Source: an uncultured Myxococcales bacterium
GTDB taxonomy: Bacteria; Myxococcota; Myxococcia; Myxococcales; Myxococcaceae
DNA length: 53,093 nucleotides
NCBI GenBank assembly: GCA_966211295.1
Contig: CBIHPJ010000001.1
Span: 1-53,093 of the forward strand
Direction of reading: 5' to 3'
The notes under the pieces were generated by a model. It made no database searches, was not told the DNA's origin, and worked only from the letters and a program-made list of their open reading frames with translations. The position numbers and the translations under genes were made by a program. The stretch's first letter is position 1. Each line of letters begins with the position of its first letter. Below, piece after piece: positions 7,277-47,893 of the stretch.

Positions 7277-10200
7277 TGACTGCGCTTCCCTTGAAGCCGC
7301 TGCTGCGTCTCGCGGTGGTGGGCTCGGTCGACGACGGCAAGAGCACGCTCATCGGGCGGCTGCTCTACGAATGCGACGCGCTCTTCGAGGATCAGATCGC
7401 CTCGGTGCGGAAGGCCACCACGAAGAAGGGCGAGACGGAGATCGACTTCTCGCTCTTCACCGATGGGCTCCTCGCCGAGCGCGAGCAGGGCATCACCATC
7501 GACGTCGCGTATCGATATTTCTCCACTGCGCGTCGCACGTTGATCGTCGCCGATACCCCGGGACACGTTCAGTACACGCGCAACATGGCGACGGGCGCTT
7601 CGACCGCAGACGCCGCGGTGATCCTGATCGACGCGCGCCTCGGAGTGCTCCCCCAGACGCGCCGCCACGCGTACATCGCGTCGCTGCTGCGCGTGCCGTA
7701 CCTCGCCGTCGCGGTGAACAAGATGGATCTGGTCGGGTTCGATCACTCGACCTTCAAGCGCATCGGTGAAGAGCTGCTCGCGTTCACCAGCACCCTCGGG
7801 TTCAAGGAAGTGCGGCTGTTCCCCGTGAGCGCGCGTGCGGGGGACAACTTGAAGGAGTTGTCGGAGCGGACTCCGTGGCACCAGGGCGGCACGCTGCTCG
7901 GTTGGCTCGAGTCGCTGCCGCATGAGGATCGCTCGCTCGATGCCGCGCTGCGTTTTCCCGTGCAGAACGTGCTGCGTCCGCACCTCGACTACCGCGCGTT
8001 CGCGGGACAGGTGGCGAGCGGCGTCGTCAAAGTGGGAGACGAAGTTCAGGCGTTGCCTTCAGGTGCGCGCTCGCGCGTGGTGGGCATCGATACGTTCGAT
8101 GGTCCGCTCACCGAGGCGAGCGCGCCAACCTCGGTCGCGCTGAGGCTCGAGCACGAGCTCGACATCTCGCGTGGTGACGTGCTCGTGCATCCGGGGCGCC
8201 TACCGCTCTCGCTGCAGCGCTTCGAAGCGGAGCTCGTGTGGTTCGGAGAGAAGCCGCTCGAGCCGGGACGTCGTTACCTGATCAAGCACACGACGCGCAC
8301 CGTGCCGGCGCAAGTGGAGCGCGTGGTGTTCAGGAAGGAGCTCGAGGATCTCTCCGATGCTCCTGCGGAGACGCTCGCGCTGAACGACATCGGGCGCGTG
8401 GTCATCTCGAGCAAGCGGCCGTTGCTCGGTGATCGCTACGTCGATGATCGCCGCACCGGCGCGTTCATCGTCATCGACCCGCTCACCAACGACACGGTGG
8501 CGACTGGGATGATCGCGGGGCCGCATGGAGCGGACGGGGCTCATGCCGGTGGTTCTTCCATCACCGCGGAGCAGCGGCGCACCCGGCTCGGGCATCTCTC
8601 GGGCGTGCTGGTCGTTTCTGATGAATCGGAAGCAACGACGGTCGAGAAGAAGCTGTTCGAAGCGGGCGTCGTCACTGCACTCGCACGAGGTGACGGAGAG
8701 CTCGCGGTGGCTCTCGCTGAAGCAGGTCTCTGTGCGATCGCGTGGGCCAAGAGTCCGATCGCGCTTCGCTCGATCACGGATCACGCGAAGGAAGCGGGAG
8801 TTCCACTCCGTCAGCTCGTCGACTTCCTTCCTCCGGTGGCGGCTCACCCAAGCGCCACGATCCTCTACGGCTCTCAAACCGGTAATAGCCGCACCCTCGC
8901 GGAGAAGCTGCATCACCAACTCGCGGCTGCCGGAGTCGAGGCACGACTGCTACGCACCGGCGAGTACCAGGTCCGCGAGCTCGCGAAAGAGTCGCTCCTT
9001 TACGTCGTCATCAGCACGCAGGGCGATGGCGATCCGCCCGACGATGCGAAGAGCTTCTTCGACTTCATCAGCAGCAAGAGAGCTCCGCGGCTCGAGCAGC
9101 TGCAGTTCGGCGTGCTCGGACTCGGTGACACGAGCTACACGAAGTTCTGCGAGATCGGGCGTGTGCTGGATGCGCGGTTCGCGGCACTCGGCGCGAAGCG
9201 GATCGTCGATGCGGGCGAGTGTGATGTTGATTTCGAGACGGTCGGTACTCCGTGGATCGAGCGGGCGGTTGAGAAGGCTCCGCGCGGGAAGACGCATGCC
9301 CTCACCCCGACCCTCTCCCGCGGCGCGAGGGAGACACTGGGGCGTTTCAATCGAGAGACGCCCTTCGCAGCCGAAGTGCTGGTGAATCAGCGCATCGTCG
9401 CTCGCGACGCGTTGAAAGAGGTGCGCCATGTCGAGCTCTCTCTCGGTGCATCGCGTCTCACGTACGAACCCGGCGACTCGCTCGGCATCTGGCCGCGCAA
9501 CGCTCCCGAGTTGGTGAAGGCGGTGCTCTCCACGCAGAAGCTCGACGGCGACGTTCAGCTCACGCGCGATTCGCAGCGGCATCCGCTCAGCACGTGGCTC
9601 GCGTCGAAGCTCGAGCTCACCAAGTTGTCTCGTCCCTTCCTCGCAGCGCACGCGGCGTTGGCGAAGAGCGCTGAGCTTGACGCTGCGCTGAAGCCGGAAG
9701 GAGCCGAAGCGCTGCGTACGCTCCTCGACACGCACCAGGTGATCGACATCCTTCGTCGCTACCCCGCGAAGTGGGAACCCGACGCGCTCGTTCACTCATT
9801 GCGTCGCCTGGCTCCGCGCCTGTACTCGATCGCCTCGAGTCAGAAGCGCGTGGGCGCCGAGGTGCATCTCACGGTCGGCCACGTCGCGTACCAGGCGTTC
9901 GGCGAAGCGCACTTCGGAGTGGCCTCGCATCACCTCTCCACGCGCGCGTCTGAAGATCTCGTTCCCGTCTTCGTCGAGTCGAACCCGCGCTTCCGCCTTC
10001 CGTCCGACACCTCACGCGACGTGATCATGATCGGCCCGGGCACGGGCGTGGCTCCGTTCCGCGCGTTCGTGCAAGAACGAGTGGAAGTGGGAGCGAAGGG
10101 CCGCAACTGGCTCTTCTTCGGCGAGCAGCACTTCCGTTCTCAATTCCTGTACCAGGTGGAGTGGCAGGACGCGCTCAAGCGAGGTCAGCTCGCGAAGCTC

Positions 10201-10428
10201 TCGCTCGCGTTCTCTCGAGACCAGGCGCAGAAGATCTACGTGCAGCACCGCATGCGCGAGGCGGGCAAAGAGCTCTTCGCGTGGCTCGAAGGTGGAGCGC
10301 ATCTGTACGTCTGCGGTGACGCGAACCGCATGGCGCGCGACGTGGAGCAGGCGCTCATCGAGATCGCCGGCGAGGAATACGTCGCGAAGCTCCGCGAGTC
10401 CGGCCGCTACCAGCGCGACGTCTACTAA
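7276..10428 (+). CDS. cysN/cysJ: Fusion protein: sulfate adenylyltransferase subunit 1 (CysN GTPase) + vestigial APS-kinase-like segment + sulfite reductase flavoprotein (CysJ)
   Basis: One uninterrupted frame contains all three parts. CysN has the G1 motif VGSVDDGKSTL, DTPGH and NKMD. The segment ITAEQRRTRLGHLSGVLVVSDESEATT resembles the CysC N-terminus but lacks the GLSGSGKS P-loop. The flavodoxin domain (ILYGSQTGNSR, STQGDGDPP) is followed by the FNR-like domain (RLYSIASS, GPGTGVAPFRAF, YVCGD, C-terminal RYQRDVY). The ATG overlaps the cysD stop by 1 nt. Confidence 0.85.
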   Translation: MTALPLKPLLRLAVVGSVDDGKSTLIGRLLYECDALFEDQIASVRKATTKKGETEIDFSLFTDGLLAEREQGITIDVAYRYFSTARRTLIVADTPGHVQYTRNMATGASTADAAVILIDARLGVLPQTRRHAYIASLLRVPYLAVAVNKMDLVGFDHSTFKRIGEELLAFTSTLGFKEVRLFPVSARAGDNLKELSERTPWHQGGTLLGWLESLPHEDRSLDAALRFPVQNVLRPHLDYRAFAGQVASGVVKVGDEVQALPSGARSRVVGIDTFDGPLTEASAPTSVALRLEHELDISRGDVLVHPGRLPLSLQRFEAELVWFGEKPLEPGRRYLIKHTTRTVPAQVERVVFRKELEDLSDAPAETLALNDIGRVVISSKRPLLGDRYVDDRRTGAFIVIDPLTNDTVATGMIAGPHGADGAHAGGSSITAEQRRTRLGHLSGVLVVSDESEATTVEKKLFEAGVVTALARGDGELAVALAEAGLCAIAWAKSPIALRSITDHAKEAGVPLRQLVDFLPPVAAHPSATILYGSQTGNSRTLAEKLHHQLAAAGVEARLLRTGEYQVRELAKESLLYVVISTQGDGDPPDDAKSFFDFISSKRAPRLEQLQFGVLGLGDTSYTKFCEIGRVLDARFAALGAKRIVDAGECDVDFETVGTPWIERAVEKAPRGKTHALTPTLSRGARETLGRFNRETPFAAEVLVNQRIVARDALKEVRHVELSLGASRLTYEPGDSLGIWPRNAPELVKAVLSTQKLDGDVQLTRDSQRHPLSTWLASKLELTKLSRPFLAAHAALAKSAELDAALKPEGAEALRTLLDTHQVIDILRRYPAKWEPDALVHSLRRLAPRLYSIASSQKRVGAEVHLTVGHVAYQAFGEAHFGVASHHLSTRASEDLVPVFVESNPRFRLPSDTSRDVIMIGPGTGVAPFRAFVQERVEVGAKGRNWLFFGEQHFRSQFLYQVEWQDALKRGQLAKLSLAFSRDQAQKIYVQHRMREAGKELFAWLEGGAHLYVCGDANRMARDVEQALIEIAGEEYVAKLRESGRYQRDVY
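9299..9335 (+). repeat. REP-like palindromic element inside the cysN::cysJ fusion (flavodoxin-FAD linker)
   Basis: Sequence is CCCTCACCCCGACCCTCTCCCGCGGCGCGAGGGAGAC. It is read in frame as ALTPTLSRGARET. Confidence 0.8.
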
Positions 10429-19398: not shown

Positions 19399-19425
19399 TG
19401 ACTGGTCGTTTACACCAAGTTCTAC

Positions 19426-19461
19426 GCCCTCACCCCGACCCTCTCCCGCTGGGAGAGGGAG
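19426..19461 (+). repeat. REP-like element (subfamily 1)
   Basis: Sequence is GCCCTCACCCCGACCCTCTCCCGCTGGGAGAGGGAG. It lies between the DUF1552 stop and the ClC start. Confidence 0.8.
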
Positions 19462-39511: not shown

Positions 39512-41065
39512 ATGTCCAAGACGCACCTGATCCTTCTCTGCCTCGCGCTGACCGCTTGCCCCTCTTCCTCCGGCCCGCAAGGAGATCCCGGGCCTGCAGG
39601 TCCTCCTGGCGCGAAGGGAGATCCCGGCATGCCCGGAGCGAAGGGCGACAAAGGAGACAAAGGTGATCAGGGTGATCAAGGCGTGCAGGGCAGCGCCGGC
39701 ATGGAAGGCGCGCAAGGACCTCAAGGTCTGCAGGGGCCTCCGGGCACCGTGACGGTGATCGACGGCGGCGTGGTGACCGGTCCTCCGGGCTCGTCGGTGA
39801 TCGTCACTCCGATCACTCCGGGCAGCACGTGCGCCACGGGTGGCATTCGCGTCACCCAGCTCTCCGACGGCGGCATCACGAACGTGTGCAACGGCGCGCA
39901 GGGGCCGCAAGGCGATGCAGGTCCTCAGGGCCCCGCGGGACCGACGGGTGCCACTGGTGCTCCGGGAGGAAGTCCTTCCGCGACGACGCTCCCTGCGATG
40001 AGCACTCAGTGTCCGACGGGCGGCGTGCTGGTCACCATGCCCGACGGCGGCACCTTCCCCATCTGCAACGGCTCGCAGGGTCCGCAGGGTGCGCAGGGAA
40101 TTCAGGGCCTCACTGGAATGACGGGCGCGACGGGTGCACCGGGCATGACGGGCGCGCAGGGTCCACAGGGGCTTCAGGGCATTCAAGGCATGACTGGAAT
40201 GACGGGCGCGACGGGAATGACCGGTGCGACTGGAGCCACCGGAGCTGCGGGCCCGACTGGCGCAGCTGGTCCCACTGGGCCTACTGGACCGACTGGACCC
40301 GCGGGTCCTCCGGGCGCGGTGATGTACCTCGACGGCGGAGTCGTGGTGCTCTCCACCGAGCCGATCACGTTCCTCGGCTACACGTCGGCGACGTACACGG
40401 GAAATCTCGGCGGCTACACGGGAGCGAACGCGAAGTGCGCGGCTGAGTTCCCTGGATCGTTCCTCTGCACGATCCCCGACTACGACCTCTCGAACCCGAG
40501 CTCTCCTCCTGGTCCCACCGGCGCGTGGATCGACTTCGCGCGAGTGGCGTCTGGCGCACGCAACGACAACTCGTGTAACGCGAGCGGCAACTCCGCGTGG
40601 ACCTCCGCGGCCACCGGCAGCTACGGCGCGAATCTGAACGCGGTCGGCGGCTACTACACGACGGTGGGGTGCTCGAACACGAAGCCGCTCGCGTGCTGCC
40701 GTGGCTCGTATCCGATCATCTTCCGCGGCTTCACCTCGATGACGTACACGGGAGATCTCGGCGGCTACCCCGGAGCGAACGCGAAGTGCCAGGCGCAGTT
40801 TCCCGGCTCGTACTTCTGCACCATCGCGGACTTCGATCGTGCGAACTCGACGATCGCTCCGCCGACGAGTGCGGGCGCATGGATCGACTTCGCGCGAGTG
40901 GCGTCAGGGGCGCGCAATGACAATTCGTGCAACGCGAGCGGCAACTCCGCGTGGACCACGGCGGCCGCTGGCAGTTACGGCGCGAACTTGAACGCGGTGG
41001 GTGGCTCCTACACGACGGTGGCCTGCTCGAACTCGAAGCCGCTGGCGTGCTGTCAGAACCGCTGA
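39512..41065 (+). CDS. Collagen-like triple-helix-repeat lipoprotein with two tandem C-terminal Cys-containing (DUF1554/endostatin-like) domains
   Basis: Lipobox LALTAC. Three Gly-X-Y blocks are interrupted by two C-TGG-[IV]-V..DGG..CNG-QGPQG modules. These are followed by two 117-aa repeats with GNLGGYxGANAKC..C..C..C..ACC. Confidence 0.85.
   Translation: MSKTHLILLCLALTACPSSSGPQGDPGPAGPPGAKGDPGMPGAKGDKGDKGDQGDQGVQGSAGMEGAQGPQGLQGPPGTVTVIDGGVVTGPPGSSVIVTPITPGSTCATGGIRVTQLSDGGITNVCNGAQGPQGDAGPQGPAGPTGATGAPGGSPSATTLPAMSTQCPTGGVLVTMPDGGTFPICNGSQGPQGAQGIQGLTGMTGATGAPGMTGAQGPQGLQGIQGMTGMTGATGMTGATGATGAAGPTGAAGPTGPTGPTGPAGPPGAVMYLDGGVVVLSTEPITFLGYTSATYTGNLGGYTGANAKCAAEFPGSFLCTIPDYDLSNPSSPPGPTGAWIDFARVASGARNDNSCNASGNSAWTSAATGSYGANLNAVGGYYTTVGCSNTKPLACCRGSYPIIFRGFTSMTYTGDLGGYPGANAKCQAQFPGSYFCTIADFDRANSTIAPPTSAGAWIDFARVASGARNDNSCNASGNSAWTTAAAGSYGANLNAVGGSYTTVACSNSKPLACCQNR
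40361..41062 (+). repeat. Intragenic tandem duplication, 2 x 351 bp
   Basis: The units are 40361..40711 and 40712..41062. They share long near-identical stretches, for example GGCGC(G/A)TGGATCGACTTCGCGCGAGTGGCGTC...GCGAGCGGCAACTCCGCGTGGACC. Confidence 0.85.
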
Positions 41066-41070
41066 CGTGT

Positions 41071-41107
41071 CTCCCTCTCCCTTCGGGAGAGGGTCGGGGT
41101 GAGGGTG
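41071..41107 (-). repeat. REP-like element (subfamily 1, reverse orientation)
   Basis: Sequence is CTCCCTCTCCCTTCGGGAGAGGGTCGGGGTGAGGGTG. It starts 5 nt after the collagen-like stop. Confidence 0.8.
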
Positions 41108-41197
41108 CACCAATCCAGTTACCCTCCCGCCAAATTCAGTCGAACGACACCGGGGTGGCATCGCGCAGAACTGCTCGGTCCTGCCGCCAGGACGTTC

Positions 41198-41232
41198 GCC
41201 CTCACCCTGACCCTCTCCCGAAGGGAGAGGGA
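41198..41232 (+). repeat. REP-like element (subfamily 1, forward orientation)
   Basis: Sequence is GCCCTCACCCTGACCCTCTCCCGAAGGGAGAGGGA. It forms an inverted pair with 41071..41107 across a 90-nt spacer. Confidence 0.8.
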
Positions 41233-41255
41233 AATAGGTGTAGAAGCCAGCCGCG

Positions 41256-42023
41256 ATGAAGACGTTGAGTGTCACGCGCTACGTGCGCCCACTGCGAGAA
41301 GGCGGCTCACTCCCCGCGATCGTCGAGGCCTCCGACGAGGGCCTCTACGTGATGAAGTTCCGCGGCGCGGGCCAGGGCAAGAAGGCCCTCATCGCCGAGA
41401 TCATCTCAGGTGAGCTCGCCCGCGCGCTCGGACTTCCCGTGCCCGAGCTCGTCTTCCTCGACCTCGATCCCAAGTTCGGCCGCAACGAGCCCCACGACGA
41501 GATCCGCGATCTCCTCAACGCGAGCGGCGGCCTCAACGTAGGGCTCGACTACCTCCCCGGCTCCATCACCTTCGATCCCCTCGTGCCCGGTCCGCTCACG
41601 CCGGAGCTCGCGAGCGCAGTGGTCGCGTTCGACGCGCTCACTCTCAACGTCGATCGCACCGCGAAGAACCCCAACCTGCTCACCTGGCACCGCAAGCTCT
41701 GGCTCATCGATCACGGCGCTTCGCTCTACTTCCATCACGGCTGGGCGAACCCCGAGGAAGCAGCGCGCTCGACCTTCCCTCCGATTCGCCAGCACGTGCT
41801 GCTGCGCTTCGCGAGCGCGCTCAGCGAGGTCCGCTTCGAGATCACGCACGCACAGCTCGAAGCCATCGTCGCGAACGTGCCCGACGCGTGGCTCGAGAAC
41901 GAGCCGGGGTTTTCGAGCGCGGCCGCGGTGAAGACCGCCTACGTGCAGTTCCTCGAGACGCGCATCGCCAATCGCGCCCGCTTCGTAGAGGAGGCCACTC
42001 GTGCCCGCGTCCAGCCCGTTTGA
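41256..42023 (+). CDS. HipA-like (PI3/4-kinase-fold) family kinase of unknown function
   Basis: The N-terminus RPLREGGSLPAIVEASDEGLYVMKFRGAGQGKKALIAE, the catalytic-loop-like NVDRTAKNPNLL and the DxG-like LIDHGASL are present. Size is 255 aa. Confidence 0.7.
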   Translation: MKTLSVTRYVRPLREGGSLPAIVEASDEGLYVMKFRGAGQGKKALIAEIISGELARALGLPVPELVFLDLDPKFGRNEPHDEIRDLLNASGGLNVGLDYLPGSITFDPLVPGPLTPELASAVVAFDALTLNVDRTAKNPNLLTWHRKLWLIDHGASLYFHHGWANPEEAARSTFPPIRQHVLLRFASALSEVRFEITHAQLEAIVANVPDAWLENEPGFSSAAAVKTAYVQFLETRIANRARFVEEATRARVQPV

Positions 42024-42384
42024 TTACGCCATCATCCGAGTGGTGCCGCGCGTCGAGCGAGGCGAGTTCCTCAACGCCGGCGTGATCATTCACTGCCCCA
42101 CGCTCGATTACCTCGCGGCCGCAGTGTCCCTCGACACCACGAAGCTGAAGGCGTGGTGGCCCGACGTCGACGCCACCGAGCTGAACGAGCACCTCGAGGT
42201 GCTGCCCCGCATCGCCAAAGGAGAGCGCACCGCCGGACCGATCGCGTCACTCTCCCGCAGCGAACGCTTTCACTGGCTGGTCGCGCCGCGCAGCACGGTG
42301 GTCCAGGTGTCGTCGGTGCACTCGGGAATCTGCGAAGGCACCGCGCCCTTGATCGAGCAGTTGATGAACCGCTTCGTGCGCTGA
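42001..42384 (+). CDS. DUF3037 domain protein
   Basis: FDYAIIRVVPRVERGEFLNAGVII..RFHWLVAPRSTVVQ matches my recollection of DUF3037. The GTG start overlaps the kinase gene by 23 nt. Confidence 0.7.
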   Translation: MPASSPFDYAIIRVVPRVERGEFLNAGVIIHCPTLDYLAAAVSLDTTKLKAWWPDVDATELNEHLEVLPRIAKGERTAGPIASLSRSERFHWLVAPRSTVVQVSSVHSGICEGTAPLIEQLMNRFVR

Positions 42385-42385
42385 C

Positions 42386-43087
42386 TCAGTCGTGATCGTA
42401 GAGGTCGCGCAGCTTCTCCTTCGCGGCCTCGAGCGTGTCGCGCTTCCGCTTCGAGAGATTCTTGCCCGCGCGGTTGATGTAGAAATTCAGCATCGACATC
42501 GCCGAGCGGAACGGAGTGCTCTTCAGCCGCTTGCTCTTCTCGGCCGAGCGCTTCACCGACTTCGCCACCTCTCGTGGATCGCTCTGGGTGAAGACGTGCG
42601 GCTCGAGCGTCATCGCGTCGCTGTGCTCGGTCACGTTCTGCGACCAATACTTCCGCTTGCGAGTGCGGCTGGCCTTCTGAGCCGACGCGCTCCGTTCACC
42701 GGGTGAGCGACGTTGCGCCGCGCGATGCGCCTGCGATCGAAGCGCCGGACGAGAGACGGTGCGGCGCGACTCACGCTCGAGCGCGCGCTCGGTGGCGCGA
42801 GAGCGTTTCGCAGACACGGGCCGCTTCGGTTGATGACCACGCTTCGTGTCGCGCTCGGCCTGGCGCTTCACGCTCGCCGACGCGCGCTTCGGGACAGGCA
42901 GCTTCACTCCTGCACGTCGCGCCTTCGAGAGACCGATCGCGATCGCCTGCTTCGCCGAGCGCGCGCCGTGCTTCCCTTCGCGAACGTGGTGCACCTCTTC
43001 GCGCACGAACTCCCCGGCCTGGGTGCTCGGCGCCTTTCCCTGGCGCTTCGCCTTCCGTGATCTCCGCAGCGTTTCCTTCTCGGGCAT
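42386..43087 (-). CDS. DUF6496-like N-terminal module fused to a DUF3175 domain, highly basic linker
   Basis: Start set at MPEKETL, with a GAGGAG RBS. The segment HHVREGKHGARSAKQAIAIGLSKARRAG resembles the 36861 gene. The C-terminus WSQNVTEHSDAMTLEPHVF..PFRSAMSMLNFYINRAGKNL is DUF3175-like. The upstream 116 codons of the ORF are discarded. Confidence 0.7.
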   Translation of the reverse strand: MPEKETLRRSRKAKRQGKAPSTQAGEFVREEVHHVREGKHGARSAKQAIAIGLSKARRAGVKLPVPKRASASVKRQAERDTKRGHQPKRPVSAKRSRATERALERESRRTVSRPALRSQAHRAAQRRSPGERSASAQKASRTRKRKYWSQNVTEHSDAMTLEPHVFTQSDPREVAKSVKRSAEKSKRLKSTPFRSAMSMLNFYINRAGKNLSKRKRDTLEAAKEKLRDLYDHD

Positions 43088-46348: not shown

Positions 46349-47893
46349 ATGACTGCGGTGCCGTTTCAAGCCAACCAGCGCTTCGGGCAATACACGCTGG
46401 TCCGCCCGATCGCGGTCGGCGGCATGGCCGAGGTCTGGCTCGCCAAGCTCGACGGTCCGCAGGGTTTTCAAAAGAAGGTCGCGCTCAAGCGCATGACCGG
46501 CAGCATCGCGGAGCAGCCGCAGTTCGTGACGATGTTCCTCGACGAAGCGCGCCTGATGTCGGGGCTCACGCATCCGAACATCTGCCAGGTGTTCGAGCTC
46601 GGCGAGCGCGAAGACAACTTCTACGTCGCGATGGAGTTCATCGACGGCGAGACCGTGCAGCACGTGATGCGTGCGGTGACGCGCGCGCAACAGCGACTCC
46701 CCATGGAGTTGGCGATCAAGATCGCGCGCGACTGCGCCGACGCGCTCCACTACGCGCACACCAAGCAGGGCGACGACGGCAAGCCGCTCAACGTGATCCA
46801 CCGCGACGTGTCGCCGCAGAACCTGATGGTGACCTACGAGGGCGTGCCCAAGCTCCTCGACTTCGGCATCGCGAAAGCGGCCACGCGCACCAACGCGACC
46901 GAGGTGGGCCAGCTCAAGGGCAAGCTCTCGTACATGCCGCCTGAGCAGGCGCGCGGCGAGACGCTGGATCAACGCGCTGATCAATTCTCGCTGGGCGTGA
47001 TGCTGTTCGAGATGCTCACGCACACGCGGCTCTATCCCCCGCTCAAGGAGATGGATCTCTTCCGCAAGGTCGCGCTGGAAGAGACGCCGTACGAGACCGC
47101 GCGGCAGCGTGAGCCTTCGATCCCCGAGGACTTGAGCAACCTCGTGGCGCGCATGATGGAGCGCGATGCGACGAAGCGTTATCCGTCGCTCGCCGAGGTG
47201 CGCGATCAACTGACCGCGCATCTGCACGATCACACCACCAGCATTCCCTCGAACGAGGCGATGTCGAACTTCATGACGGCCTACTTCCCGCCGGAGACGC
47301 GCGGGGCCGTGGTGAAGCAGGACACGCCCGAGCCGGCGAAGGTGCACAAGGGCTTCACCACCAGCACGATGATGGGGCGCAGTGGGAAGCGCTGGCAGTT
47401 CGCCACCATCGCGCTGCTCGCGTTGCTCGGCACGGGTTCGCTCGCGATGGCGTTGTGGCCGAGCCCGAAGCCCGTGGAGGACCTGGACGCCGCCGAGGCG
47501 CCGCCCACGGTGAAGGTGATCGAGCCGCCCGCTCCGCTGCCGGAGCCCGAGGCGGAGTACGTGCCGTACATCGCGCCGCCCAAGCCTGAGATCCAGCCCG
47601 AGCCCGAGCCGGAGGAAGAGCCGGAGTCGATCCCGAAGGGCGTGAAGGCCGCGCCTCCGAAGAAGAAGGTCGCTCCGGCTCCGAAGGGGAAGGGACTGTT
47701 GTCACTGCAGACTTCGCCGTGGTCGATCGTGCGGTTCGGGAAGAAGAACCTGGGCGAGACGCCGCTGGTTGGAGTTCCCTTTCCTGTCGGGCGTCATCGG
47801 CTGGTGCTCACCAATGATGAGCGGAAACTGCGCACGACGATCGAGGTCGAGATCAAGGCGGGGCAGACCACGACACTCAAGTTGAAGCTCTAA
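46349..47893 (+). CDS. Ser/Thr protein kinase with TM segment, Pro/Glu-rich linker and PEGA-like C-terminal domain
   Basis: Hanks motifs GGMAEVWLA, VALKR, HRDVSPQNLMV, DFGIAKA and YMPPE. The C-terminus LSLQTSPWSIVRFGKKNLGETPL..RHRLVLTN is PEGA-like. Confidence 0.9.
   Translation: MTAVPFQANQRFGQYTLVRPIAVGGMAEVWLAKLDGPQGFQKKVALKRMTGSIAEQPQFVTMFLDEARLMSGLTHPNICQVFELGEREDNFYVAMEFIDGETVQHVMRAVTRAQQRLPMELAIKIARDCADALHYAHTKQGDDGKPLNVIHRDVSPQNLMVTYEGVPKLLDFGIAKAATRTNATEVGQLKGKLSYMPPEQARGETLDQRADQFSLGVMLFEMLTHTRLYPPLKEMDLFRKVALEETPYETARQREPSIPEDLSNLVARMMERDATKRYPSLAEVRDQLTAHLHDHTTSIPSNEAMSNFMTAYFPPETRGAVVKQDTPEPAKVHKGFTTSTMMGRSGKRWQFATIALLALLGTGSLAMALWPSPKPVEDLDAAEAPPTVKVIEPPAPLPEPEAEYVPYIAPPKPEIQPEPEPEEEPESIPKGVKAAPPKKKVAPAPKGKGLLSLQTSPWSIVRFGKKNLGETPLVGVPFPVGRHRLVLTNDERKLRTTIEVEIKAGQTTTLKLKL

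Follow-up and report, generated by a model that had tools for sequence, protein, structure and literature searches.

Does a kinase gene that overlaps the gene of a small DUF3037 protein encode a defensive module of the toxin-antitoxin (TA) kind, or a pair with another task in the cell? The question is raised by a locus at positions 41256-42384 of a 53,093-nucleotide (nt) stretch of DNA from an uncultured Myxococcales bacterium (contig CBIHPJ010000001.1), which is referred to at its full length as the window. From sequence comparison, the pair belongs to the HipA_2-kinase/DUF3037 family (PDC-M66 = DS-6 = HipAD), of which it is a short-partner variant, and its homology to the phage PhiR5_1 pair is distant. 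The reading favored here, with moderate confidence, is that the locus encodes a HipAD-type kinase toxin that would be checked by a co-translated DUF3037 protein and would probably be defensive. Toxicity, neutralization and an anti-phage role are carried over from relatives by analogy.

The gene pair and its family

The kinase gene, a HipA_2 family member and putative toxin gene, is located at 41256-42023 (+), starts with ATG and encodes 255 amino acids (aa) according to the open reading frame (ORF) listing. The DUF3037 gene, which encodes a single domain and a putative neutralizing partner, is located at 42001-42384 (+) in the same listing, starts with GTG and encodes 127 aa. The third-position GC content of both ORFs was 0.87-0.88, as expected at the 65.6% GC of the window, indicating that both are real genes. 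The kinase matched the Pfam family HipA_2 (PF20613) at an E value of 1.4e-21 and 77 bits (cut-off 27), and the partner matched DUF3037 (PF11236) at 9e-39 and 133 bits (cut-off 22.6). No model for either protein was found in NCBIfam, and an exact-protein look-up of the kinase in public assemblies returned no record.

In PADLOC, both proteins matched a paired candidate, the kinase PDC-M66A (E 4e-25) and the partner PDC-M66B (E 6e-10, with profile positions 4-128 of 281 covered). In PHROGs, the kinase matched phrog_3162 (E 5e-25) and the partner matched positions 3-129 of 279 of phrog_5137; the pair of Escherichia phage PhiR5_1 (PV340545.1) shares both of these families with the window pair. The GenBank annotation of this phage places a "HipA toxin" of 249 aa and a "HipD antitoxin" of 275 aa directly downstream of cI. 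The window kinase was 26% identical to PhiR5_1 HipA over 223 residues (BLASTP, E 6e-14), and the DUF3037 profile aligned with HipD at an hhalign probability of 92% (E 7.5e-7), over HipD residues 5-128 only. The identity between the two partners was about 19%. The paired matches in Pfam, PADLOC and PHROGs, together with the homology to HipA and HipD in the same order, indicate membership in this family.

Relatives of the pair have been studied. A HipA-like/DUF3037 pair beside Retron-Sda1 protects E. coli from phage Bas51 independently of the retron; defense was lost when the kinase was deleted, and deletion of the DUF3037 gene was toxic (PMC12548924). The same study found a strong association of DUF3037 with HipA-like proteins and noted that PADLOC names the pair PDC-M66 (PMC12548924). 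In the DefensePredictor paper, the E. coli anti-phage system DS-6 comprises the HipA-related kinase DS-6A and DS-6B, a protein with DUF3037 and DUF1829, and was renamed HipAD after Brenes & Laub 2025 had discovered it independently (PMC13092281). The same paper reports that mutation of a predicted catalytic residue of DS-6A abolished defense, and that AlphaFold3 predicted a DS-6A-B complex with an interface predicted template modeling score (ipTM) of 0.76-0.79 and a weaker DS-6B-DNA contact (ipTM 0.67) (PMC13092281).

A sequence-only reading of the window had described the pair as uncharacterized, with no function assigned to either family. This description does not stand, as the pair is PDC-M66, relatives of which (DS-6/HipAD and the Sda1-linked pair) are validated anti-phage systems. 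The same reading was to be refuted if a search showed membership in an already characterized pathway; the search placed the pair in the HipAD/DS-6 family, and novelty therefore fails at the family level. Its guess of a TA-like or phage-defense role agrees with results since shown for the relatives (PMC12548924, PMC13092281). The two proteins that it had described, a 255-aa HipA-like kinase with an intact catalytic loop NVDRTAKNPNLL and an LIDHG motif and a 127-aa DUF3037 protein, were both found where it had placed them, with the Pfam matches given above.

Clades, pairing and coupling

Judged from sequence, the family divides into a short-partner clade, which includes the window pair, and a long-partner clade. 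In the short clade, the kinase has about 255-262 aa, the partner has about 125-135 aa (DUF3037 alone) and the ORFs overlap by 23 nt. In the long clade (PhiR5_1 and Pseudomonas syringae plasmids), the kinase has about 247-249 aa, the partner has 270-275 aa with an extra C-terminal domain, and the overlap is 4 nt. The settings of the long clade are mobile, either a prophage immunity region or a site beside IS91 on a conjugative plasmid. The window kinase is 26-30% identical to the long-clade kinases. The window partner ends after its DUF3037 domain, and the second, C-terminal domain of about 150 aa present in HipD is absent. This is not a truncation artifact, since a convergent gene lies 1 nt past the stop and the closest DUF3037 homologues (120 listed) have 125-159 aa. 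The C-terminal domain of HipD and DS-6B is dispensable for pairing in the short clade. In a whole-library profile search, 2447 DUF3037 clusters (50% identity) were matched at E<=1e-3, and the approximately 120 clusters at E<=1e-30 represent the short clade.

Pairing was studied in two scans. The genome scan used one genome per species and a DUF3037 alignment as the query; at least 592 species matched, and the best 80 loci were analyzed. The metagenome scan was anchored on the kinase and gave at least 589 matches, from which 80 loci were analyzed. The best 80 genome loci were distributed among Myxococcota, Acidobacteriota, Chloroflexota, Actinomycetota, Gemmatimonadota, Gamma- and Alphaproteobacteria, Nitrospirota, Bacteroidota, Eisenbacteria and Abditibacteriaceae. 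A HipA_2 kinase gene was located directly upstream of the DUF3037 gene on the same strand in all 80 genome loci, and a DUF3037 gene was located downstream of the kinase gene in each of the 67 metagenome loci whose sequence continued for 330 nt or more past the kinase stop. The pairwise identities of kinase and partner co-varied (r = 0.64). No conserved third gene or neighborhood across phyla was found at the related loci, and the recurrent neighbors belonged to generic families (response regulators, short-chain dehydrogenases/reductases [SDRs] and ABC ATPases). The co-occurrence check proposed in the sequence-only reading is thereby answered in favor of pairing, and its description of a stand-alone pair with the kinase first is right.

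The kinase was intact, or clipped only by a contig end, in 79 of the 80 genome loci. The exception, in a Thermoanaerobaculia metagenome-assembled genome (MAG) (L047, ~9660-10375), holds a diverged C-terminal kinase remnant (residues ~148-257, 36% identity) and an intact DUF3037 gene (E 5e-56). No orphan kinase was seen among the examined genome and metagenome loci. An "orphan antidote" of this type, resembling TA decay, is the pattern expected if the kinase is harmful. At a single locus, in a Dehalococcoidia MAG (L063, 9329-9983), an insertion of about 650 nt separates an intact kinase gene from the DUF3037 gene and interrupts an overlap that is universal elsewhere. In Luteimonas mephitis and related genomes (L083-L085, 9297-10004), a gene of the uracil-DNA glycosylase (UDG) superfamily overlaps the kinase start by 4 nt, and in Cystobacter fuscus (L082, 8802-10004) a gene for an Rce1-like CAAX protease does so, also by 4 nt. 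This suggests that three-gene operons occur occasionally, with an extra gene that differs between taxa and is not conserved.

The two ORFs of the window overlap at 42001-42023 (23 nt). The putative coupling signal (41988-42003, +) consists of a Shine-Dalgarno-like GAGGAGG at 41988-41994, including GGAGG at 41990-41994, followed after 6 nt by the GTG at 42001-42003 within the kinase ORF. As read from the sequence, GAGGAGG is dual coding and also forms conserved Glu-Glu-Ala codons of the kinase. The overlap was exactly 23 nt in 47 of the 80 genome loci and in 67 of 75 metagenome loci, and a GGAGG preceded the DUF3037 start by 6-8 nt in nearly all loci of both scans, those from genomes representing at least 10 phyla, indicating that the overlap in the window is not due to chance. 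The dual-coding overlap and GGAGG provide strong sequence-level evidence for translational coupling. The sequence-only reading had deduced coupling from the overlap; the overlap and the conserved GGAGG arrangement were observed, and from these we infer the coupling itself. Neither sigma-70 promoters nor intrinsic terminators were found in scans of 40950-42650.

Short-clade kinases from the same phylum were on average 62% identical and those from different phyla 57%, the highest value between phyla being 74%; the kinase of Bacteroides finegoldii is 54.5% identical to that of the window. The nearest relative was in a different phylum for 14 of 67 kinases. The closest myxobacterial relatives have kinases with 76-81% identity, the homology being limited to 41244-42384 and the flanks being unrelated. 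Short-clade matches on plasmids, at 44-55% identity, were found on replicons of at least 130 kb. The identity of up to 74% between phyla and the different flanks among close myxobacterial relatives indicate horizontal spread, and on these sequence comparisons the pair appears to be a self-contained cassette under strong purifying selection.

Predicted proteins and function

The predicted catalytic set (K34, E48, D133, N138/N140 and D152) is intact in the sequence of the window kinase. From the protein-kinase architecture in the AlphaFold2 (AF2) model, Lys34 in YVMK (codon 41355-41357, +) is the predicted ATP-contacting lysine, and Glu48 (codon 41397-41399, +) is its predicted partner. Neither residue varies among 30 short-clade kinases or in the alignment that adds the phage and plasmid kinases of the long clade. 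The catalytic loop was recognized as a sequence motif (residues 131-142, 41646-41681, +); it contains the predicted catalytic base Asp133 (codon 41652-41654, +), with Asn138 and Asn140 nearby. D133, R134 and N140 are invariant in both clades, and N138, like D133, does not vary within the short clade. In the LIDHG motif (residues 150-154, 41703-41717, +), Asp152 is predicted to bind Mg as the equivalent of the DFG aspartate; I151, D152 and H153 are invariant in both clades. Further invariant segments of the short-clade kinases are REGGS (14-18) and RGAGQG (36-41).

The AF2 model of the kinase had a predicted local distance difference test score (pLDDT) of 79 and a predicted template modeling score (pTM) of 0.82, with pLDDT below 50 at residues 15-17, 101-111, 140-148 and 154-160. 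Foldseek matched this model with protein-kinase folds only (such as Fam20C, CtkA and eukaryotic-type kinases, with BRI1 and TTK among the top matches), at a probability of up to 1.0 but with template modeling (TM) scores of only 0.3-0.48. The modeled kinase thus has a bilobal, protein-kinase-like fold with the Lys/Glu/catalytic Asp/Mg-Asp constellation.

The AF2 model of the DUF3037 protein (pLDDT 89, pTM 0.82) has a three-stranded sheet, helices and a small hairpin. No match was found in a PDB fold search with this model (best E 0.56). The protein was considered as HipS-like, as similar to the N-terminal part of HipA and as a HipB-like helix-turn-helix (HTH) protein; all three were rejected, as the confident model had no PDB fold match and the weak HORMA/MHC hits had TM scores of 0.27 or below. 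The partner matched no HTH family in Pfam and no sequence in the PDB, and PDB sequence searches with profiles of the kinase and the partner gave chance-level matches only. Among 30 short-clade sequences, 29 of the 127 positions were invariant, including the polar residues R17, E19, R20, E22, N25, H91, W92, R97, S98, Q102, S104 and H107. Residues Y9, R13, P16, E19, E22, N25, G27, L65 and S104 are invariant even in comparison with the long clade.

Uncharacterized phage proteins with the DUF3037 fold were found in BFVD (query-normalized TM 0.41-0.61): A0A6J5NRF1 (125 aa), A0A385ECM2 of Caulobacter phage CcrPW (114 aa), A0A516KZK0 (287 aa) and A0A516KTX2 (261 aa). The two long proteins are probably HipD-like, and the short ones, which stand alone, may be DUF3037 mimics encoded by phages, with a possible counter-defense role. 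A tblastn search of GenBank phages with the window DUF3037 protein gave no match. The "DUF3037" mentioned in a paper on Arabidopsis RST1 is a different InterPro entry and is irrelevant here.

In the favored reading, the kinase and DUF3037 genes would be co-transcribed. Ribosomes completing the kinase ORF would cross GGAGG and the start codon 23 nt before the kinase stop, so that a DUF3037 protein would be made with every kinase. The minimal kinase of about 255 aa would be toxic when free, phosphorylating an essential host component. The DUF3037 protein would bind and neutralize it, as suggested by the toxic effect of losing the DUF3037 gene and by the A-B complex that AlphaFold3 predicts, both reported for homologues. 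By analogy with DS-6/HipAD and the Sda1-linked pair, the kinase would be freed under stress, for which phage infection is the likeliest candidate, and the cell would be arrested in the style of abortive infection. Translational coupling and stoichiometry are probably the means of control in the short clade; DS-6B may have a role in sensing or autoregulation besides its predicted DNA contact.

Several observations weigh against a defensive role. The neighbors of the pair in the window (Dps/ferritin, SDR, AraC regulator, collagen-like, DUF3175/DUF6496, glyoxalase and eukaryotic-type Ser/Thr kinase genes) include no defense or mobility genes. The 144 immediate neighbors of the 80 genome loci showed no enrichment in a defense-island test, with only about three strong PADLOC matches (DpdF, PsyrT and PDC-M05A), and their Pfam families were highly heterogeneous and mostly metabolic, regulatory or housekeeping. 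Synteny around the pair was found only in about nine Acidobacteriaceae species. No match to the short-clade kinase profile was found among the 2.9 million viral contigs of IMG/VR. For an arms-race system, the conservation of the two proteins is unusually high, with 55-60% identity across phyla and, in the 127-aa partner, 29 invariant positions. Identity to the proteins of the PhiR5_1 phage system is low, 26% for the window kinase and about 19% for its partner, and no experimentally tested member of the short-partner clade was found in the accessible literature.

In the main alternative, which is possible though rather unlikely, the short clade would be a signaling or regulatory pair conserved in the cell that shares its ancestry with HipAD but not its role. 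The degree of conservation, the contexts outside islands and the enzyme-like invariance of DUF3037 suit such a pair better than an arms-race system. DUF3037 would then be a substrate, activator or specificity subunit, and the kinase would phosphorylate a conserved cellular target or DUF3037 itself. The very high conservation in at least 10 phyla (kinase mean 57% between phyla, Bacteroides copy 54.5%) fits such a pair, but an inter-phylum identity of up to 74% argues for horizontal spread of a self-contained cassette. The many invariant polar residues of DUF3037, with Ser104 invariant even in the long clade, are more like an active or ligand site than a fast-evolving antitoxin interface; homologues with the same two domains nevertheless act as toxin and antidote and protect from phage, and one locus has a decayed kinase with an intact partner. 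Contexts elsewhere include ArgRS/PlsB/Rce1-like genes in Cystobacter, and the housekeeping contexts rho-trx-rhlB-ftsEX-UDG in Luteimonas, FtsK/RlmL in Archangium and, in a Chloroflexia genome, TsaE-TsaD beside a major facilitator superfamily transporter and acyl-CoA dehydrogenases. These housekeeping contexts, the kinase profile without a viral contig match and the neighbors without defense enrichment agree with a cellular task, but a pathway partner conserved nearby was not found, and the location varies even among close myxobacterial relatives.

It is unlikely that the function of the short clade departs from that of HipAD in a further sense, as an ancient, horizontally spread pair of soil and gut bacteria that serves stress or growth control and not abortive infection. 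DUF3037, which has a fold without a solved relative and about 29 invariant positions, most of them polar, would in that case not be a passive antitoxin but an enzymatic or ligand-sensing partner, which might, for example, reverse or redirect phosphorylation by the kinase or be switched by phosphorylation of Ser104. A selfish addiction or persistence-type TA cassette with no native anti-phage role, kept through post-loss killing or through stress dormancy of the kind described for canonical hipBA, is a weaker third option and unlikely. The two-gene toxin/antidote logic inferred from relatives, the movement of an autonomous cassette between loci and between phyla, its lack of association with defense islands and a catalytic-loop motif in common with HipA, of which gain-of-function alleles give persistence (PMC8262856), would suit it, but the only phenotypes reported for the family are anti-phage, short-clade copies were not found on small mobilizable plasmids, on which addiction modules are frequent, and strong purifying selection on both proteins across phyla is unlike the prediction for a purely selfish module.

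At the family level the locus adds little, as HipA_2 with DUF3037 is already a validated anti-phage, TA-like system (2025-26 work). The useful point is the division into two clades suggested by the sequences, a mobile clade with a two-domain partner, which has already been tested, and a large clade with a single-domain partner (at least 592 species genomes and at least 589 metagenome matches). The short clade identifies DUF3037, with no second domain, as the conserved companion of the kinase, and the coupling design of this clade is unusually rigid, with a 23-nt overlap and a Shine-Dalgarno sequence formed from conserved Glu-Glu-Ala codons. It also bears on the reach of homology-based defense prediction, that is, on whether well-conserved cassettes outside defense islands act as immune systems.

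Surroundings and likeness to known systems

The inverted repetitive extragenic palindromic (REP) pair, the collagen-like gene upstream and the convergent gene 1 nt past the stop were all present as described in the sequence-only reading. The REP-like pair (REPIN-like, units of 37-46 nt, no strand assigned) is located at 41065-41239, between the collagen-like gene and the kinase start, and its arms (41065-41110 and 41194-41239) are 87% complementary. The region is predicted to form a hairpin of -116 kcal/mol (z = -8.7). The 37-nt unit (CTCCCTCTCCCTTCGGGAGAGGGTCGGGGTGAGGG[TC]G) occurs in three copies in the window, the third at 19425-19461. Homology with related myxobacterial loci begins only at about 41244, and the REP pair is therefore probably outside the module, marking its 5' boundary. 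With about 17 nt between the end of the right arm and the kinase ATG, the REP pair may affect transcription or mRNA stability of the kinase/DUF3037 pair.

The collagen-repeat gene (39512-41065, +) encodes a protein with a lipoprotein-like N-terminus (MSKTHLILLCLALTAC) and a Cys-containing C-terminal module of about 115 aa, repeated twice in tandem (…TYTG[ND]LGGY.GANAKC.A.FPGS..CTI.D.D…ACC…); its only Pfam match is the collagen repeat. The stop of the convergent gene (42386-43087, -), at 42386, is 1 nt away from that of the DUF3037 gene, which means that the two transcription units have to overlap or to end inside one another. The convergent gene appears to be one ORF in which a DUF6496 region (E 1e-6) is combined with DUF3175 at the C-terminus (E 3e-41), and its likely start is the methionine of MPEKETL..., giving about 233 aa.

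A eukaryotic-type Ser/Thr kinase gene (Pkinase, E 3e-38) is located at 46349-47893 (+), 4 kb downstream of the pair, and Archangium gephyra has a similar gene about 2 kb downstream of its own pair (L169, 12832-14406). This proximity is probably a coincidence, since such kinases are very abundant in myxobacteria. In two unrelated phyla, an FtsK/SpoIIIE gene was found at most a few kb from the pair. In Archangium (L002, L169/L170) its position is upstream, either adjacent or close by, and in about eight Acidobacteriaceae (L003-L023) it is on the opposite strand, downstream by about 2-8 kb. This is the only neighbor family common to different phyla, which may be a coincidence.

By structure, the kinase model is most similar to the Golgi casein kinase Fam20C and to Helicobacter pylori CtkA (probability 0.99-1.0, E ~1e-3, TM 0.44-0.48). 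These proteins differ from the window kinase in that the identity is 11-13% and the TM score is below 0.5, and they have no gene context or functional link in common with it.

Canonical HipA-type kinases target aminoacyl-tRNA synthetases. The window kinase was considered as a member of the canonical HipA family and dropped, the hhalign probability against E. coli HipA being 1.3%. HipA_C, HipA_N and Couple_hipA gave no Pfam matches to the window proteins at E<=1, no HipA or HipT chain was found in a PDB profile search with the kinase at E<=10, and HipA was not among the top 50 Foldseek matches of the kinase model. The likeness is at the motif level only. The motif F..L....D..AKN is shared with E. 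coli HipA, whose counterpart is FQWLIGATDGHAKN, with identical spacing, and FDALTLNVDRTAKN...LIDHG of the window corresponds to FQWLIGATDGHAKN...TPFYDI of HipA as a D-x-x-x-K-N loop with a downstream Mg-binding Asp. A P-loop-like segment reads GAGQGKKAL in the window and AGAQEKTAL in HipA. The term "HipA-like" of the sequence-only reading accordingly applies to the Pfam HipA_2 assignment and the catalytic-loop motif, whereas homology to canonical HipA is not detectable at the profile level. A kinase toxin paired with a small protein is also the logic of HipBA and HipBST, but the window kinase has 255 aa, compared with 440 aa in HipA and about 335 aa in HipT, and its partner is downstream, lacks an HTH and has a fold without a HipB or HipS match. 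The HipA_2/DUF3037 family does not appear among the clades, gene organizations and section headings of the 2021 Hip-kinase phylogeny (PMC8262856).

The closest known system is HipAD/DS-6/PDC-M66. The window pair has the same two families, with the kinase first and the partner second on the same strand and with overlapping ORFs. Kinase residues K34, E48, D133, N140 and D152 and DUF3037 residues Y9, R13, P16, E19, E22, N25, G27 and S104 are kept. The differences lie in the partner, which has 127 aa and DUF3037 only, compared with 275 aa in HipD, 270 aa in the P. syringae plasmid partner and an extra DUF1829 in DS-6B, and in the overlap, which is 23 nt with an internal GGAGG compared with 4 nt in PhiR5_1 and the P. 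syringae plasmid. The invariant RGAGQG is present in the short-clade kinases and absent from the long forms. The short clade is found in chromosomal housekeeping contexts, whereas the long forms are found in a prophage immunity region or beside IS91 on a conjugative plasmid.

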